NCBI GenBank assembly: GCA_018509705.1
Contig: GCA_018509705.1_3630.1
From: a phage
Length of the DNA stretch: 64,000 nt
Strand: one strand, 5' to 3'
The notes beneath the pieces were generated by a model. It saw only the letters and a program-made list of their open reading frames with translations. It was not told where the DNA came from and did not search any database. A program made the position numbers and the translations under genes. Positions 2,701 to 44,042 of this stretch are shown one piece after another; positions within the stretch are counted from its first letter, which is position 1, and each line of letters begins with the position of its first letter.

Positions 2701-3047
2701 AGAAGTTGATTGTGTGGCTAGATGACTTGAGAGATCCGTCAAATTATGGGCTCCCAGACGCTATTTGGCTAAAGAATTCCTCCGAGTTTATGGATTTTAT
2801 TAACGATAATAAAAAGCTCTACAGACGCGTTTCTGAGTGGCATATGGACAACGACCTTGGAGAGGTATTCGAAGGGTACGATTGCCTATCCATGTTGGAG
2901 GAAAAGTTTGTATTTGGTAAGCCTCCTGTAGTTGACAACGTGAAGATTTTCGTGCATACTTCTAACCCATCAGCGGCTCGTAAATTCATGCTTGCGACTG
3001 ACTCGTTTAAAAAGTTTGGAATAGAGATTAAACAAAACATCTACTGA
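2697..3047 (+). CDS. Hypothetical protein
   Basis: 116-aa ORF overlapping upstream stop (ATGA coupling); no motif recognised. Confidence 0.45.
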   Translation: MKKLIVWLDDLRDPSNYGLPDAIWLKNSSEFMDFINDNKKLYRRVSEWHMDNDLGEVFEGYDCLSMLEEKFVFGKPPVVDNVKIFVHTSNPSAARKFMLATDSFKKFGIEIKQNIY

Positions 3048-3055
3048 GGACACTT

Positions 3056-3817
3056 ATGCGACGACTGATTGTTATCTCCGGTGCTGGTTTGAGTGCTGAA
3101 TCTGGTATTCCCACTTTCCGATCTGGTAGCACTGCAATGTGGGAGAATTTCAGCATCGATGAGGTGTGCAACATCCACACCTTTGCCAAGAACTACTATA
3201 AGGTGCATGACTTTTACAATGCACGTCGTGTAGCTTTAGGCAGTGTTGAGCCTAACCTTGCACATCTTCGGATCGCTGAGTGGTATTCCCGCTGGTCTGG
3301 TCGTGTGATCAACCTTACCACCAATGTAGATGATTTGCTGGAGCGTGCTGGTGTAAAACATGAAGATATTTTACATGTCCACGGGTATTTGCCAGAAATA
3401 GTCTATGAGGACGATGAAGGAAGTGACGTCATTAAGGACATTGGATACTCTGAGGTAGACGCAGGAAAGTATACCTGGGTTAAGCCTAATGTGGTGTTCT
3501 TCGGAGAAGTAGCTCCGAAGTATACAGACATGTATGACCTGTTGACTTCTCTTACGAGCAATGATATGGTTATCCTTGTAGGGTGCTCCAACACAGTTAT
3601 CAATTTTAACTGGGAGCTATTCCCTGCCTGCAATAAGGGAACCAAACTACTGATCGTTAATAAATACGACTCACAGCATCTAGAGGAGAATGGCATTTCA
3701 CGTAGTGATATTTACCAGTATGAGGATCGCGGCATCCCAGTTTGGTTTAACGGTGCGGTTGATGCCTTCTCTGATAAAACATTCATTGAGACTGTAGAAA
3801 ACTTTATGGAACTTTAA
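3056..3817 (+). CDS. Sir2-family (sirtuin-like) protein lacking the zinc-ribbon cysteines
   Basis: GAGLSAESGIPTFRSG (GAGxSxxSGIPxFR), TTNVDDLLERAG (TQNID-like), HVHG catalytic His, VVFFGE; no CxxC pairs. Confidence 0.75.
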   Translation: MRRLIVISGAGLSAESGIPTFRSGSTAMWENFSIDEVCNIHTFAKNYYKVHDFYNARRVALGSVEPNLAHLRIAEWYSRWSGRVINLTTNVDDLLERAGVKHEDILHVHGYLPEIVYEDDEGSDVIKDIGYSEVDAGKYTWVKPNVVFFGEVAPKYTDMYDLLTSLTSNDMVILVGCSNTVINFNWELFPACNKGTKLLIVNKYDSQHLEENGISRSDIYQYEDRGIPVWFNGAVDAFSDKTFIETVENFMEL

Positions 3818-22762: not shown

Positions 22763-23500
22763 CTGCTCATGTAAAATCTATCTAAACGGGGAAACTCCAG
22801 AACGGACAATCCCGTGCTAAACGTAACAGAACTCCTGACCAAGAGGAGTCCTGAAATGAGAAAACAAATTCGTGATTTTGAAGGTTATGAAATTGACGAG
22901 ATGGGCAATGTTTATTGCACCCGCTACGAAAATGAAAGAATTATTCATTCGTGGGAAGAGATAAACACAGGTTACCGTCTTGTTAGGATACGCAAGAACA
23001 AAAAGACTGTTTGCCTAAGGGTTCACAGACTTGTTGCTGAATCGTTCTTACCAAATCCAGACAATTTACCCTATGTTAAGCACAAAGGGGACAACAGGAA
23101 AGATAACAGTGTATACAACCTTGAGTGGGGAGCTTGCCCAGACAATACGCAAGAAGGATACAACAACAACTGTTATGCTTTTTACACAAAATGCCACGGT
23201 GTGAAAGCCACCAACAAATTAACTGGTGAGGTTTTCCACTTTAAAAGTCTGAGATGTTGTGCTGATGTTTTAGGAGTGGATAGAAAAAGAATATCTGCTA
23301 TCCTGAAACGTGGTGCGCCTAATAACTATGATTACGAGTTCTGTTACGAAATGCCTAACGACTAACCGTGATGAATGTAGCGGTGTAGGGTGTAAGCCGA
23401 TGACACTCGAAATGGTAGACACACTAAGTGTGAAGATATAGTCTGATCTGCATGGGAACATGCAGCAGCACGTAAAGGTGCGGGGGTGGACTTGCGAACC
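22763..23500 (+). mobile_element. Putative group I intron 2 in nrdD carrying a homing endonuclease ORF (boundaries approximate)
   Basis: AAGATATAGTC at 23433-23443 is an exact match to the S element consensus as recalled; HNH ORF embedded. Confidence 0.6.
22856..23365 (+). CDS. HNH homing endonuclease (intron-encoded)
   Basis: VHRLVAESF...VKHKGDNRKDNSVYNLEW (HNH_3-like) plus N-terminal EGYEIDEMGNVY motif; ATG at 22856 with AGGAG RBS. Confidence 0.7.
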   Translation: MRKQIRDFEGYEIDEMGNVYCTRYENERIIHSWEEINTGYRLVRIRKNKKTVCLRVHRLVAESFLPNPDNLPYVKHKGDNRKDNSVYNLEWGACPDNTQEGYNNNCYAFYTKCHGVKATNKLTGEVFHFKSLRCCADVLGVDRKRISAILKRGAPNNYDYEFCYEMPND

Positions 23501-24478
23501 ACCCTGAACATAATGTGTAGAAGTTTCTTATCGAAATATAGCGACCCTGTAACAGGCGAGGAGAAATACCTTGGCAGATTTAACTTAGGCGTTGTTAGCC
23601 TTAACCTGCCAATGATTGCGGCAAAAGCTAAAACGGAAGGTGTTGATTTCTTTGCAGTTCTTGACGAATACCTGGATCTTGCATACGAGGCTCACCTTGT
23701 AAGGGTTAACCGTCTAAAAGGAACAAAGGCAGGGCAGAACCCTATCATGTGGTGTGAAGGCGCTCTTGCTCGCCTGGATCCTGAAGAGAGTATTGATAAA
23801 CTCTTCTATGACGGGTACGCTTCCATCAGTATTGGGTATATTGGTGTGTATGAAACCTGTCAGATTTTGGGCAGGGAGGGTGACAAGGCTTTAGCTCTTG
23901 GAATACTACAGCACATGAGAGATGCTTGTGAGCGATACAAGAAGGAAAGTAGACTAGCGTTTAGCTTGTACGGCACTCCTTCTGAGAGTCTATGCTATAA
24001 AGCTGCAACCTGTCTGGATCGTGAATATCCTGAAGTGTTGAAGCACGAGCATGAATATCTCACCAACAGTTTCCATCAGCCAGTATGGATCAATAGCTCT
24101 CCTTTTGATAAGTGGGAGTATGAAGAAGGTTTTGCTATGATATCCTCTGGTGGCAACATCGGATACGTAGAGACACCAAATCTGAAAAACAACTTAGATG
24201 CTTTGGAAGCTCTTGTTGATTTCGGATATAAACACATTATGTATTTTGGTATCAACCAGCCTGTGGATAAATGTCTTAAGTGTGGTTTCTCTGGTGAGTT
24301 CAGTGCAACAGCTAAAGGGTTCTGCTGCCCTGCGTGCGGATGCCACGATGAACAATATATCTCAGTGATCCGAAGAGTGTCTGGATACCTTTCCAGTCCT
24401 AACTCCCGTCCTTACAATAAAGGTAAGCAAGCGGAAGTTATAGAACGGGTTAAGCACTACGGAAGTTGTGGTTGCTGA
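23486..24478 (+). CDS. nrdD: Anaerobic ribonucleotide reductase, exon 3 (5' boundary approximate)
   Basis: Conserved CRSFL and GRFNLGVVSLNLP region, C-terminal zinc site CLKCG...CPACG and glycyl radical motif RRVSGYL. Confidence 0.85.
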   Translation: MDLRTTLNIMCRSFLSKYSDPVTGEEKYLGRFNLGVVSLNLPMIAAKAKTEGVDFFAVLDEYLDLAYEAHLVRVNRLKGTKAGQNPIMWCEGALARLDPEESIDKLFYDGYASISIGYIGVYETCQILGREGDKALALGILQHMRDACERYKKESRLAFSLYGTPSESLCYKAATCLDREYPEVLKHEHEYLTNSFHQPVWINSSPFDKWEYEEGFAMISSGGNIGYVETPNLKNNLDALEALVDFGYKHIMYFGINQPVDKCLKCGFSGEFSATAKGFCCPACGCHDEQYISVIRRVSGYLSSPNSRPYNKGKQAEVIERVKHYGSCGC

Positions 24479-24544
24479 TACTTGACAAAAGCCACAAGGA
24501 TGTGGCACCCTTAGTTCAAAGACGAGAACTAAGAGGATTCAGCA

Positions 24545-25705
24545 GTGAGAAAACTTACAACCGAAGATTTTATAGAGGGGGCGAAAGCAGTTCATGGTGA
24601 TAAATATGATTATTCCAAAGTCAAATATGTGGGTGCACACACCAAGATTGTAATTATATGCCCTGAGCATGGAGAATTTAAGAAAACTCTTGGAGATCAC
24701 CTCCGTAAAAAACAGGGTTGCCCAAAATGTCAGATTGAAGCAGAAAGAGCGGCTTCTGCTGAAAAATTTAAAGCGGAGGCCGAGGCTAAGTATAATTATA
24801 AATATGATTACTCTAAGGTAGAGTATGTAAATGCTAAAACTAAAGTTGTGATTGTTTGTCCTGTTCACGGCGAGTTTGAGCAAAAGCCTGATAACCATCT
24901 CCGCGAGGGGGGTTGCCGTAAGTGTGGAGGAACTGAGAGAAAGACTACTGAAGAGTGGATCGCTGAGGCAAAAGCGCTTCATGGCGATAAGTATGATTAC
25001 TCTCTTGTAAATTATAAAACCGGTAATGATAAAGTGGAGATAATCTGTAATACATGTGGTGCTCACTTCCCACAAAGACCTCATGACCATGCACCAAGTG
25101 GAAAAGGTTGCCCCGAGTGCGGGAAGAAGAAGGTGGCCGAGGTTAGTAGGAAGACGCAGAGAAAGAAAGCATCTGAGGTAGCTAAAAGGTTTGAGGCAAG
25201 AGCCAGAGCTATCCATAAAGATAAATACGATTATTCCAGGGTGGAATATGTTAATAGGGAGACAGAGGTCACTATCATCTGTCCGATTCACGGGGAGTTC
25301 ACACAAAAACCGTTTGTCCACATCAACCAAAAAGCTGGCTGTCAAAAATGTGCTAAAGTCGGCTTCTTATCTCATGAACATGGTAGCCTTTATATCATGG
25401 TTGACGATCTGGAAGTACCAACTATGATGAAAATTGGTGTGAGTGTCCGGGTAGATGAACGAAGAAAAGATGTGTTAAAAAGAGCTAAAAAAGCTGGTGC
25501 TAGATTCTCTGATCTACATGTTATAAAAACTTGGGAAGGAACAACAGACGACATGCAAACTTTAGAAAAAGCTATGCACCAAGCCTTGAGCCAATACAAA
25601 ATCAACTTCACAGAGAAGTTTGATGGCTGTCGAGAGTTCTTCTACTACAGACCGGAGGTGTTCAGCATAGTGGAAGCAGCGTATAAAGAGATCTGCGGTA
25701 AATGA
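24545..25705 (+). CDS. T5orf172/GIY-YIG-like domain protein with four N-terminal tandem Cys/His repeat modules
   Basis: Four repeats of about 60 aa (KYDYSKV.YV...TK..I.CP.HGEF.QKP..H...GC.KC); C-terminal KIGVS...E..H..L...REFF pattern. Confidence 0.55.
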   Translation: MRKLTTEDFIEGAKAVHGDKYDYSKVKYVGAHTKIVIICPEHGEFKKTLGDHLRKKQGCPKCQIEAERAASAEKFKAEAEAKYNYKYDYSKVEYVNAKTKVVIVCPVHGEFEQKPDNHLREGGCRKCGGTERKTTEEWIAEAKALHGDKYDYSLVNYKTGNDKVEIICNTCGAHFPQRPHDHAPSGKGCPECGKKKVAEVSRKTQRKKASEVAKRFEARARAIHKDKYDYSRVEYVNRETEVTIICPIHGEFTQKPFVHINQKAGCQKCAKVGFLSHEHGSLYIMVDDLEVPTMMKIGVSVRVDERRKDVLKRAKKAGARFSDLHVIKTWEGTTDDMQTLEKAMHQALSQYKINFTEKFDGCREFFYYRPEVFSIVEAAYKEICGK

Positions 25706-39642: not shown

Positions 39643-39948
39643 ATGGCTAAATCTAAAGTTGAACTGTTCACCTCTCTTCCTTCTGACACTGCAGAACGTG
39701 ATCGCCTTCGCAAAACAATTGAAGAACTGGTGGAACTCCAGCTTCAGATTAAAGATTTGAAAGATGCCATCAAGGATATCATTCTTGTTGAGAAGCAGGA
39801 TCATCTGTATTCTCCTAAATTCATCAAATCTCTGGTGGCTACCGAGTTCGATATTCGCTATGAGGCTGAAAAACGTCGCGCTAAAATCGAAGAAGAGGTT
39901 GAGCACATGTCTGAGGCAGACATTCTGTTCAAACGCTCTGTAGAATAA
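39643..39948 (+). CDS. Hypothetical coiled-coil protein
   Basis: 101 aa, charged heptad-like sequence; strong RBS; followed by strong terminator. Confidence 0.5.
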   Translation: MAKSKVELFTSLPSDTAERDRLRKTIEELVELQLQIKDLKDAIKDIILVEKQDHLYSPKFIKSLVATEFDIRYEAEKRRAKIEEEVEHMSEADILFKRSVE

Positions 39949-41332: not shown

Positions 41333-41548
41333 ATGAAGATAGAAATATTTGGTGGAGCTGACAACACTCGTGGCCTGATTTACCTTGAGTTCGATGAATC
41401 ATACCTGCCAGAGGTGTTAAATATGGACTCTGTTGCTGATGCTTTGGGAGTAAGTCCTAAAGATCTCTACTCTGGTGCTGAGATTGATGGTTGGGAGGAG
41501 ACCATGAACATTGATTTCAGTGAAGTAGGTGATGAACCACTGGACTGA
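41333..41548 (+). CDS. Small acidic protein (family A-like start MKIEIF)
   Basis: 71 aa; AGAGGAGA RBS. Confidence 0.45.
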   Translation: MKIEIFGGADNTRGLIYLEFDESYLPEVLNMDSVADALGVSPKDLYSGAEIDGWEETMNIDFSEVGDEPLD

Positions 41549-43034
41549 CACACAATTAGCTACCCGGCTAAAGTGCTGGGAGCACCTATAACACATCTTT
41601 CAACTAAATTTCCCACCACCACAATCACTTACCTCCCACACATGACTGTTTGCTTGTTTAGTGAGCAGTCATGCCTTGACATTCTTGCCTATCCTGATAA
41701 AATTAAGTTCTTCTCTTTTCTTTTACCGAGTAATTCGGGTTTTCTGTTCTCTTCGGTTTGAAGGGGGTATGGAGATACACCTGAGTGAACAGGGTGAACA
41801 ACCGAACCATTGGCTATGGCATTAGCATGGCGAAGCGGACGGGTGACGAAAGAGGGGCCGGAGGACACCAGTCACTGCCATATGATATATGGGTGATAAC
41901 CTGAAGAATCTGAATAAGTGTTTAAGTACCAGTCAGAGGAAAAGGTGAATGGTAGCTGAAGGGGAGGGGGGTTTCTTGTATCTTTAATTTGTATATTATG
42001 TATACACTTGTAAACCAATTTCATCTGAATCTGTTTACCACACAAAGTGGATAGAGACAAATATTACCTATTAAACTTGAATTATTTATAGAAAATACCA
42101 CAACACCACTTAAGTCTTTGATTTTACACACAAATCCTGCAGATATTCAACCTCCATATTTAACATACTTGTAACATATTCCATACTCTACCTGCCTGAT
42201 CAATTTCCCCAACTACATCCCCCATATTTTCCCTGTCTGTACTACCCCTGCCCCGCCGGGAGTCCCGTCATATCTGGCTTTCCAGCAAATATCACACCCA
42301 CAAATATCATTGCCTGAAGAGGGTTTCATCCCATAATACCTGCCTTGCCTGAAGAGGGTTTCATACGCCACGTAAATTTTTTAATTGACCCCTCCCCGCC
42401 GCCGGAAAGGTTGGCTTTTCTCGCACAGACCTGAAGAGTCAGCCAGAAATATCTGAATAGGCCCAATTCTACCCCGATTTTGACCTGACCTACAGGAGCG
42501 CTGCCCTGTCAGGAGCCGTAGCGACTGGAGTGCTGCCAGGCGGACGAAATGGGAATACTTCTCATTCTTATAACAATTCTCAAATATCGAGGCAGTGAGG
42601 CAAATTAATAGGCCAGGCCGTTCACACAGTGGCACAACATTTGCAACCTATCCTGTGGGGATGAATGAGAATACCTATCATTGTGAGAACCATTATCATT
42701 ACGGGCAATTTAACATAATACCCATTATGCGCACCACTGGCGATACATACAGGGATTGATAACATGGGTTACTGTTTACGCACATAACAATTATATTTCT
42801 TACCATTTGTGTGGGATATAGTTAGCAGCCGATAGATTAGATATTAACCTGCAGACTTCTGACCGTCCAGACGTCTAAACGCCCACACACCAAGGATTAT
42901 ACATACACTCCTGAATGTAAACAGGGCCGCAAAAATGCTACCATACAAGCTTGTAAATTTTTCATGCAGCACTTGACAAAGAGGAGAAAAACTTGTCTGA
43001 CATAATGTGACCTAACTGACACAACATGACACTT

Positions 43035-43121
43035 TTACACACCTATTAGTTTACACACTGGATTGTTTACATTCCTGATTGTTCACATGCTAACCATTTA
43101 CATGATTGACTGTTTACACAC
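43035..43121. repeat. Six phased iteron-like repeats of TTTACA/TGTTTACA at about 16-bp spacing
   Basis: Copies begin near 43035, 43050, 43066, 43082, 43099, 43112. Confidence 0.6.
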
Positions 43122-43130
43122 CGATAATCA

Positions 43131-43394
43131 GCCATGCCATTCGTTTGCATGACAATAATTATACATGACAATAATCGCACTGATTATAATTAGCATGACA
43201 TAATATAAAAGCAGGGCAACTATTAGCAGATCTATAGTTGCCTTGCTTGTCATGTCATGATTAACTAAATACAAGGCAACTATGATCTGATTAATAGTTT
43301 GCAGACAAACTATCACGGGGGTGATGGTTACTGCTTTTATATTATGTCGCGACTCCGTCGCGCCATGCCATTCGTTTGCATAGTTGCCTTATTG
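43131..43394. repeat. Composite dyad region: 20-bp direct repeat GCCATGCCATTCGTTTGCAT (43131-43150, 43362-43381) framing an 18-bp inverted repeat and multiple GCAACTAT sites
   Basis: Inverted arms GACATAATATAAAAGCAG (43197-43214) and CTGCTTTTATATTATGTC (43331-43348); GCAACTAT in both orientations. Confidence 0.7.
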
Positions 43395-43991
43395 TTACAG
43401 ATAAAATAATTGTATTGTTAATTATTTCTTATCTTTCTATTAGTCATCTAATGATTTCAGTTAATATAGTAACGTACAGTAAACATTAGACGACTAAAGA
43501 TTTCTCTGCTTATGGTAACCTAACGTGACAATTCCAGACTGTTTACGAAAAATGTTGACACCTGGGCCGATTTATGTTATGCAGTTTACACGAATAATTA
43601 TTTTATGCAGGTATTGACTATTCCGTTATTCTATGGTTGGAATAAATGCTTAGCAGGCTATAGAATGGCGAGCGTACGTAAATTCTGAGATCTGGCGGCT
43701 ATAGTTATACTCGATTTTTCACGTAGAAAACGCTTTTGTAGTTATGTAAGTGTATGACTTATAAAGATTTTTAGTTGTTGACAAGCTATTGAAGATATGC
43801 ATCAGGTTAAATTTTGTGCAAATGCTGCATTATGTGCAATTTTGGAAGGAAAAACGTGTAAAAATGGCCCTGCTACCACACAATGAAAAATTATGCAATA
43901 GTTATTTTATATGTATGTTTGTACAGTGGGGTTAATTGCTGGCTTGTTGATTATTCCATTTGCCAGGCGGGGCCATTTGTGGTAGGAAAAG

Positions 43992-44022
43992 AGGAGACAA
44001 AAAGAAAGGGGCTTTAAGCCCC
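43992..44022 (-). terminator. Rho-independent terminator for the leftward gene block
   Basis: GGGGCTTTAAGCCCC hairpin followed on the - strand by TTTCTTTTT. Confidence 0.55.
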
Positions 44023-44042
44023 TGACCGTGCACCTTGTTGTA

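Follow-up and report, generated by a model that had tools for sequence, protein, structure and literature searches.

A gene-free interval between convergent gene blocks

We analyzed a 64,000-nucleotide stretch of phage DNA (contig GCA_018509705.1_3630.1 of GenBank assembly GCA_018509705.1; here, the window), in which two convergent gene blocks are separated by a 2.5-kb interval at positions 41550-44040. Our subject is this interval and, within it, a 459-bp segment that corresponds to the direct terminal repeat (DTR) of related phages. Judged by its sequence, the window is that of a Vequintavirus (an rV5-like myovirus); the interval matches 122 phage records, all of them rV5-like, at 90-98% identity by megablast and 84.6-98% by blastn. 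The rV5 genome paper (2013) shows a grey "non-coding" box at the same place, between genes 163 and 164, where the AT/GC skew and the direction of transcription change. In the literature, we found no later paper discussing the content of the region and no transcriptomic or functional study of it. An initial annotation, made from the letters of the window, had offered three functions for the interval: an origin of replication, a packaging/terminase recognition site, or a cluster of structured RNAs.

The last plus-strand gene ends with its stop codon at 41548, and the convergent layout of the flanking blocks described in the initial annotation was confirmed. The nearest genes encode small hypothetical proteins of unknown role. 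The claim that no convincing open reading frame (ORF) spans the interval also held, the largest one within 41550-44040 being 84 amino acids (aa) long. Codon phase, conservation, and gaps were evaluated in an alignment of 20 vequintavirus junction loci; relatives were drawn from an annotated phage collection, and the flanking 71-aa protein yielded only three loci in IMG/VR. Across 41633-44032, the best codon phase contained 34 to 47% of the variable sites per 150-bp bin, compared with 21 of 30 variable sites in a single phase in the flanking gene (41333-41482, the last gene of the plus block). As no bin showed a codon phase bias, the interval is non-coding. Hidden small genes were rejected on the same grounds, and the annotators of related records disagree wholly about them (0 to approximately 16 ORFs). 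A tRNA scan of the whole 64-kb window found none.

At its right edge, the interval contains the predicted terminator of the minus-strand block (44023-44007), which is annotated likewise in phages Alma, HdK5, Murica, and PVP-SE1. In 11 of the 20 aligned genomes, an extra 420-nt gene (rV5 ORF164; L012 3204-3623) occupies the border between the junction and a 264-nt gene; it is missing in the window (at 44040/44043). The homologue of rV5 ORF164 in Murica is annotated as "contains Rel homology domain."

Genome ends of relatives map to two positions in the interval

In phage HdK5, positions 1-459 and 138870-139328 are 100% identical over 459 bp, and both map to window positions 42539-42997. Terminal redundancies of 458 bp have been reported for HdK5 and EdH4, with the ends placed where most PacBio reads "ended abruptly" (Korf 2019). 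The same two positions recur in other records. The equivalent of 42539 (the left boundary) is the record start in HdK5, bov11CS3, and bov25_3, and the equivalent of 42997 (the right boundary) is the record end in HdK5, ECP2303, and ECP2309 as well as the start, in reverse complement, of the EcoIv14a_Aya record. Altogether, six records (HdK5 and five others) have an end exactly at one of the two boundaries; they originate from several laboratories and follow different conventions, with one or two repeat copies and in either orientation. When the 459-bp segment was used as a query, 118 of 120 records covered at least 80% of it, at 92-98% identity, and nearly all of the matches listed span 457-460 bp. 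In the 20-genome alignment, the segment is free of gaps and has a conservation of 0.93-0.98. The features of the repeat and its boundaries are as follows (strand given where one was assigned):

42483-42532: hypervariable indel hotspot outside the left boundary (conservation 0.57, 36% gaps)
42527-42557: predicted left terminus site, GGAGYGCTGCCA, then the cut, then GGCGGACGRAATGGGAATA; the left end of the genome would begin at 42539
42539-42997: DTR, 459 bp; present as a single copy here, the assembly collapsing two terminal copies
42684-42698: Fur-box-like palindrome TGAGAACCATTATCA, just upstream of the DTR core
42698-42749: DTR-internal core ATTTAACATAATACnCnTTATnCGCACCAC, conserved in three genera
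42972-43006: predicted right terminus site, CTTGACAAAGAGGAGAAAAACTTGTC, then the cut, then TGACATAAT; the right end of the genome would be 42997

Both boundaries coincide with conserved sequence. The left motif is invariant in the 20 genomes except for two degenerate positions and single substitutions in rV5 and Mangalyan, and the right motif is kept in all 20 with isolated substitutions only, the bases past the cut beginning with TGACA. Both motifs are also recognizable in the sister genera Mydovirus and Seunavirus. The DNA directly outside each boundary, on the other hand, varies more than any other in the region. On the left, the half-site ACWGGAGYGCTGCC is duplicated in the window (42492-42505 and 42524-42537) and present in one copy in rV5 and HdK5, while Alma, A142, JEP1, and CM1 carry other insertions in the hotspot. 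On the right, the 235 bp following the DTR (42998-43232) are hypervariable, with a conservation of 0.63-0.85. These variable segments are built from repeated copies of the sequence that adjoins each cut on its outer side.

From these comparisons, we conclude that the interval is probably the concatemer junction of an rV5-like phage whose virion DNA is linear, with fixed ends and a 459-bp DTR. Under this interpretation, the window reads from right-end unique DNA (41550-42538) through the DTR to left-end unique DNA (42998-44040), and both terminal gene blocks are transcribed outward, toward the genome ends. A role of the interval in terminus formation and packaging is supported. Among the functions initially offered, it is the packaging/terminase recognition site that agrees with the physical ends of the relatives at 42539 and 42997 and with boundary motifs conserved across genera; the alternative that the interval carries no pac signal and is unconserved filler clearly does not apply.

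In phage CM1 (MK962749, L022), a second DTR copy is inserted after the equivalent of 42647, giving the order DTR, first 66 nt of array a (described below), DTR. The copies join at an ACTGGA microhomology; the junction may be truly duplicated in tandem, or the duplication may be an assembly artifact. Phage I29 may resemble CM1, as its match spans approximately 3.1 kb with two matching places.

Sister genera share the cut-site motifs

We compared the junction with those of Mydovirus (KPP-1, DP, and KP12) and Seunavirus (PVP-SE1). KPP-1 has a 514-bp DTR with doubled read coverage and a "T7-type" call by PhageTerm (PMC9862379). This repeat lies within an approximately 1.8-kb gene-poor gap between convergent blocks. 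Phage DP has an annotated 514-bp repeat_region, and its record ends at the base where the KPP-1 DTR starts, which is also where the KP12 record starts. The same sequence in direct orientation at both ends is documented for DP as well as for HdK5.

Overall similarity between the sister-genus junctions and the window was not detectable by blastn. The boundary motifs are nevertheless common to them: GTGCT..A/GRCGGAC on the left and CTTGACAR, a purine run, and TTGTS/ on the right (the slash marks the cut). In KPP-1, the boundaries read GTGCTA/GACGGAC on the left and CTTGACAAGGAGAGAGAATTGTGT/TTAGC on the right. The left sequence GTGCTA/GACGGAC is located at the DTR start that was measured in KPP-1 and is predicted in PVP-SE1; the right motif is the DTR end of KPP-1 and is also found in PVP-SE1 and BME3. 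In PVP-SE1, the two motifs lie approximately 515 bp apart in a 2.24-kb gene-free gap between convergent genes, and we predict that this phage holds an unannotated DTR of approximately 515 bp (GU070616, approximately 117218-117732; L028, approximately 1919-2433). The DTR core yields blast matches of 75-86% identity to KPP-1 3722-3772 and PVP-SE1 2128-2162, with collinear offsets from the left end.

Further elements common to the three genera are a cluster of CTGAAG and C-runs, a sigma-70-like promoter facing the DTR, and a multihairpin palindrome after the DTR. Given the likeness in boundary motifs, core, convergent blocks, and palindrome, the Vequintavirinae repeats (514 bp in KPP-1 and DP, 458 bp in HdK5 and EdH4) are homologous. 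The sister genera differ from the window in lacking the repeat arrays a to c that follow the DTR (see below) and in having more Fur-box-like palindromes. The papers on the KPP-1, DP, HdK5, and EdH4 repeats report nothing about them beyond their length. Mydovirus and Seunavirus phages of Klebsiella, Salmonella, and Cronobacter also have in common a stretch of approximately 290 bp on the right side of the palindrome (L011 4468-4758; L028, approximately 2990-3280), in which identity is approximately 89%, much higher than elsewhere in the junction.

The Fur 7-1-7 palindrome TGATAATnATTATCA, allowing at most two mismatches, has three matches in the window, two of which are in the junction (42684-42698 and 43181-43195); 0.44 matches would be expected in the whole 64 kb. 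The KPP-1 and PVP-SE1 junctions contain five each, compared with approximately 0.04 expected, and none of 200 shuffles reached five. The sites span L011 3916-4658 in KPP-1 and L028 2307-3421 in PVP-SE1, where one of them forms a hairpin within the palindromic element of each phage, and BME3 carries a perfect TGATAATGATTATCA. These palindromes may be candidate sites for host Fur or for a phage protein.

Two candidates for extending the comparison were rejected. The phi92-like phage BME3 (PP239276, L025/L026) was meant as a fourth lineage, but its record ends in an approximately 855-bp tandem duplication with Ns and the boundary motifs are at odds with its annotated "DTR-L," so it was used for shared motifs only. 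The 342-bp "DTR-L" stops elsewhere than at the TTGACAAG...TTGTG motif found at the repeat end in Vequintavirinae, and the termini of this phi92-like record look unreliable. A conserved 101-aa protein (39643-39948, plus strand) was considered as a locator of the junction in other genera; it is not syntenic, lying 35 kb from the DTR in KPP-1. This protein is at least 99% identical in 115 records and has homologues of 42-60% identity across Vequintavirinae. Some annotations call it a transcriptional regulator or double-stranded-DNA-binding protein, which makes it a candidate DNA-binding factor.

Variable arrays and a dispensable palindrome follow the repeat

To the right of the DTR, the junction contains the following features:

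42998-43033, plus strand: array a, four TGACAY units with a 9- to 11-bp period, starting at the first base outside the DTR
43034-43121, plus strand: array b, six phased iterons (ACTR)TTYACR with a 16-bp period
43131-43381: module between identical 20-bp direct repeats GCCATGCCATTCGTTTGCAT (43131-43150 and 43362-43381), enclosing array c and the palindrome
43150, 43166, and 43196: array c, here TGACAATAAT units; across genomes, TGACAATAAT or AACAAG units every 15-16 bp
43197-43348: nested palindrome with an 18-bp outer stem, an imperfect hairpin of GCAACTAT / ATAGTTGC sites, and a GC hairpin (43308-43329)
43382-44006: AT-rich conserved spacer from the palindrome to the terminator of the minus block (GC content 0.32-0.36, conservation 0.92-0.99, no coding periodicity)
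44007-44023, minus strand: intrinsic terminator of the leftward block, AGGGGCTTAAAGCCCCT and then a T-run

The six TTTACA-type iterons of the initial annotation are present as TTYACA at 43034, 43050, 43066, 43082, 43097, and 43113, spaced by 16, 16, 16, 15, and 16 bp. The phased pattern has four matches where 0.10 is expected, and none of 100 shuffles reached four. The iterons are also the least conserved part of the interval, with zero invariant columns in the main iteron bin (43033-43082). Strict TTYACA matches vary from zero to six per genome (approximately 10 units by eye when TTCACG and TTTACG variants are counted), and no unit is found in CM1, PDX, or bov11, phages that are otherwise approximately 95% identical. 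Copy number differs between genomes in all three arrays; array a varies between roughly three and eight units in relatives, counted by eye. Array b is not present in KPP-1 or PVP-SE1. As arrays a to c are missing from the sister genera, they are not a universal part of the terminus mechanism. Tandem Repeats Finder reported nothing on the arrays, which are too short and too degenerate for this tool. A reading of the iterons as DnaA boxes was tried and rejected: one unit, TTTTACACA, matches perfectly, three others match with one mismatch, and relatives carry TTATCCACG, but the relaxed pattern is too permissive, with 201 matches throughout the window.

The 20-bp direct repeat (43131 and 43362) and the perfect 18-bp inverted repeat (43197-43214 and 43331-43348) were found as initially described. 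The sites reported in both orientations were also found, four of the seven window copies of GCAACTAT lying within 43216-43387, two on each strand. We rejected CCTGAAGAG as a dispersed, strand-biased regulatory motif, since outside the junction it represents Pro-Glu-Glu codons within genes; only its junction-local cluster, in non-coding DNA, is meaningful. Folding of the palindrome (43197-43348) is far better than that of shuffled sequences, with z scores of -10.8 for the plus-strand RNA, -11.1 for the minus-strand RNA, and -10.6 for DNA. Equal folding on both strands is expected of a DNA palindrome. KPP-1 (z = -11.5) and PVP-SE1 (z = -12.4) contain elements of the same architecture. The outer arms differ in sequence by genus but are perfectly complementary in each of the three; between KPP-1 and PVP-SE1, both outer-stem substitutions (2 of 2) are compensated and none breaks a pair.

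Phage FV3 (JQ031132, L017) has one copy of the 20-bp repeat and lacks the equivalent of 43151-43381, that is, array c and the palindrome. Since FV3 is viable without it, the module at 43131-43381 is dispensable; the loss is most simply explained by recombination between the two 20-bp repeats. In rV5 and A147, the apical region of the palindrome has a 33-nt insertion. An extra GC hairpin (GGTGACCtttGGTCACC followed by CCTTCGGGTGTTTCT) is found after 43194, just before the palindrome, in 12 of the 20 genomes, including rV5, Murica, PDX, and CM1; it resembles a plus-strand terminator and is absent in the window.

A conserved predicted promoter and C-rich DNA precede the repeat

The DNA between the plus-strand block and the DTR is divided as follows:

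41550-42538: 989 bp of right-end unique non-coding DNA leading up to the right-end repeat, without codon periodicity
41633-41982: most conserved block of the junction, containing the promoter (conservation 0.98-0.999; 82-98% of columns invariant)
41676-41703, plus strand: predicted near-consensus sigma-70 promoter directed toward the DTR (TTGACA, 16 nt, TGaTAAAAT)
42100-42415, plus strand: C-rich tract with CCTGAAG repeats, AAATATCA repeats, and a C-run hairpin
42428-42458, plus strand: nearly invariant block GACCTGAAGAGTCAGCCAGAAATATCTGAA, with few single-genome substitutions in the 20 genomes

Gene-free stretches homologous to 41550-42538 are found in KPP-1 and PVP-SE1. The promoter at 41676-41703 is the best match of the scan (11 of 12 positions plus the TG of an extended -10 element), its bin is 99% conserved, and no ORF lies downstream. 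DTR-facing promoters are predicted at the same position in PVP-SE1 (1466-1494) and KPP-1 (3196-3224). Conservation in the surrounding block (41633-41982) exceeds that of the adjacent coding gene. The 283 nt past the promoter (41708-41990) showed no RNA structure beyond that of shuffled sequences (z = -0.4 and -0.1 for the two strands). The initial annotation had missed this promoter, along with the terminal repeat and the low conservation of the iterons, and had instead listed weak plus-strand promoters at 43555 and 43778; TTGACA hexamers are present at both, but the scan paired neither with an acceptable -10 element.

The C-rich tract noted initially is reflected in a GC skew of -0.42 at 42000-42399, and the duplicated 19-mer within it proved to be a 20-mer, TTGCCTGAAGAGGGTTTCAT, with 100% identical copies at 42310 and 42345. 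CCTGAAG repeats occur at 42313 and 42348 and further ones at 41900 and 42430; AAATATCA is repeated at 42287 and 42302, and the C-run hairpin occupies 42390-42415. The first 17 nt of GACCTGAAGAGTCAGCCAGAAATATCTGAA are shared with KPP-1 with one mismatch (GACCTGAAGTGTCAGCC, L011 3199-3215), and KPP-1 and PVP-SE1 likewise have clusters of CTGAAG and C-runs ahead of the DTR.

Observations outside the junction

Approximately 19 MG0656xx records named "Campylobacter phage" (UNVERIFIED, with C. jejuni as host) share 85-94% identity with E. coli vequintaviruses in this region and are probably mislabeled or contaminant coliphages. Elsewhere in the window, the ORF at 23486-24478 (plus strand) matches only the C-terminal part of the anaerobic ribonucleotide reductase NrdD (profile positions 263-562) and is followed by a T5orf172/DUF723 protein (24545-25705, plus strand), which suggests a split nrdD with a homing-endonuclease-like insert at 23486-25705.

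Discussion

The arrangement of the junction can be understood in terms of how short terminal repeats form in T7 and T3. Unit genomes would be joined at the junction during replication and cut apart at packaging. As in those phages, the terminase would recognize sequences flanking the repeat and nick at the two conserved boundary motifs, on opposite strands, and the single repeat copy of the concatemer would then be duplicated by DNA synthesis, as in T7, leaving one copy at each genome end. The arrays outside the boundaries may be reiterated half-sites for a DNA-binding protein, the small terminase subunit being the likeliest candidate, or they may be by-products of processing. The palindromic module might act as an accessory element of DNA structure that is not essential. 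We infer terminase cutting, synthesis of the second copy, and the functions of the arrays, promoter, and palindrome from analogy with known phages. A bolder version, which we regard as quite improbable, is that the palindrome and the reiterated half-sites, together with host factors at the genome ends and arrays arising as nicking by-products, constitute an undescribed terminus-processing device. In such a device, the structured DNA, as a cruciform or as a site where priming or primase loading takes place, would be used to regenerate the second repeat copy; the Fur-box-like and DnaA-box-like repeats would bring host factors such as Fur or DnaA to the genome ends; and the hypervariable arrays would be by-products of repeated nicking and strand-displacement synthesis.

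Several points weigh against the interpretation of the interval as a concatemer junction with a DTR. The fixed, sequence-specific ends are those of close relatives, 94-98% identical to this phage, and not of the isolate itself, and the cut positions are accurate to a base or two. Some depositors may have aligned their records to HdK5, in which case the six records with matching ends are not surely independent. The terminase genes lie outside the window, whose large ORFs encode a ligase, ribonucleotide reductases, a Clp-like protease, and similar proteins; the binding of a protein to the motifs is presumed. Arrays a to c are missing from the sister genera, and the palindromic module is missing in FV3. 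Finally, PhageTerm designated four bovine vequintaviruses "circularly permuted" (PMC8407724) and BpE1AUH "headful, partial circular permutation" (PMC13211470). These calls are what favors headful (pac) packaging with circular permutation, in which case the apparent repeat would reflect a convention of assembly or orientation and the region would hold just a pac site or nothing connected with the ends. However, the left boundary is precisely where version 2 of the bov11CS3 record starts, despite the "circularly permuted" call, long reads of HdK5 and EdH4 stop abruptly at fixed points, several laboratories' records have identical boundaries under differing conventions, and the coverage of KPP-1 is doubled over exactly the homologous segment. 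Headful packaging would also not require boundary sequences to be conserved in three genera, and we consider it very unlikely.

A replication origin, the first function offered by the initial annotation, is unlikely. In an origin, a phage protein or host DnaA would act as the initiator at the iterons, the AT-rich DNA would unwind, and the palindrome or a promoter-driven transcript would provide the primer. The phased iterons (four matches compared with 0.10 expected), AT-rich DNA at 43150-43200 and 43400-43800 (GC content 0.32-0.36), the strong palindrome, some DnaA-box-like units, and a near-consensus promoter without a gene to express are all consistent with this, and the cumulative GC skew turns here, as likewise noted in the rV5 paper. 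Yet the iterons are not conserved in number: strict units range from zero to six among phages that are approximately 95% identical, and the array is not in KPP-1 or PVP-SE1. FV3 has lost the palindrome together with array c, no initiator-type ORF lies in or beside the region, and the relaxed DnaA-box pattern is common in the window (201 matches). The skew turns where the direction of transcription switches, which is also what the rV5 authors concluded. An origin function could coexist with a terminus function, as do the secondary origins of T7 at phiOL and phiOR.

Two further explanations were considered. A cluster of structured non-coding RNAs, transcribed from weak promoters, would account for the folding of 43190-43355 (z = -10.8), for the compensated changes that keep the pairing between genera, and for a strong promoter at 41676 without a downstream ORF, within a block (41633-41982) that is more conserved than the neighboring gene. 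But the palindrome is strand symmetric and folds equally on both strands, the scan shows no promoter-like site immediately upstream of it, it is absent in the viable FV3, and two inverted sites for one protein would preserve complementarity too. The conserved block gives no RNA structure signal, its 283 nt past the promoter folding as shuffled sequences do. A search of the 64 kb against Rfam 15 gave no match at the gathering score, and a search of the region at E < 5 gave only two chance-level microRNA matches (E of approximately 3). The RNA cluster of the initial annotation is thus very unlikely. We judge it similarly doubtful that the palindromic module at 43131-43381 is a small inserted element, mobile or selfish, with no relation to genome-end function. 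The identical 20-bp flanking repeats, the terminal inverted repeats, and the precise absence of the module in FV3, where one repeat copy is left as at an empty site, resemble such an insertion. The FV3 configuration, however, is equally explained by recombination between the repeats, and the direct repeats do not abut the inverted repeats, being separated by gaps of 46 and 13 bp. Three genera share this architecture in the same relative place, with CGCGCCA-type sequence after it, and the 64-kb window holds no clustered second copy, GCAACTAT being isolated elsewhere.

As a short-DTR concatemer junction, the interval is of a known kind, and the repeat itself has already been reported for the genus, in one sentence of a survey paper. 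The anatomy of the junction, the cut-site motifs shared across genera, and the PVP-SE1 prediction appear to be new. The concatemer-junction interpretation explains the uncommented grey "non-coding" box of the 2013 rV5 paper. Most Vequintavirinae records are opened arbitrarily, without a second copy of the repeat, and in some of them up to 16 spurious small genes are annotated across the junction; base-exact terminus motifs could be used to reorient or complete well over 100 such records. Vequintaviruses are common in coliphage cocktails and in the BASEL collection, and correct ends matter for genome rebooting and synthetic assembly. They also bear on the risk of generalized transduction, fixed-end packagers being safer than headful ones. 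The formation of short, exact terminal repeats has been studied mainly in T7 and T3, and the conserved motifs, variable arrays, and dispensable palindrome described here provide a ready mutant set for studying it in large myoviruses.

Comparison with known systems

The "injection stop signal" of phage T5 is a gene-poor zone near the genome end of this DTR phage that is rich in repeats and palindromes and is reported to contain DnaA-box-like sequences. Unlike in the window, this signal lies within the repeat, and the T5 repeat is approximately 10 kb long and filled with genes. To our knowledge, two-step DNA entry has not been reported for vequintaviruses. The order of phased direct repeats, AT-rich DNA, and a palindrome resembles the lambda origin. 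The lambda iterons, however, lie inside the initiator gene and are fixed in number, whereas in the window and its relatives the copy number varies and the module can be lost.

The closest parallels are with T7, whose sequence we checked: its 160-bp repeat is followed at once by approximately 12 CCTAAAG units spaced 13 bp apart, phiOL lies just inside the left end, and phiOR lies approximately 550 bp before the right repeat and reads toward it. In T7 concatemers, one repeat copy is present per junction and the second is synthesized (PMC10438801), and pausing of RNA polymerase at the junction starts maturation (PMC3276506). The present junction differs in the length of its DTR (459 versus 160 bp), in having no sequence similarity to that of T7, and in its large conserved palindrome. 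It belongs to a 137-kb myovirus without a phage RNA polymerase, and its inward promoter is predicted to be of the host sigma-70 type. It is also gene free over 2.5 kb and flanked by terminal genes that read outward, whereas the early genes of T7 read inward from the left end. As in T7 and T3, whose repeat arrays are called SRL and SRR, however, the junction combines a short, exact DTR with fixed ends and a single copy between unit genomes. It also shares with T7 a phased array directly after the repeat (here, TGACAY units every 9-11 bp and then TTYACR units every 16 bp), and its predicted promoter, like phiOR, lies several hundred base pairs before the right-hand repeat and faces it.

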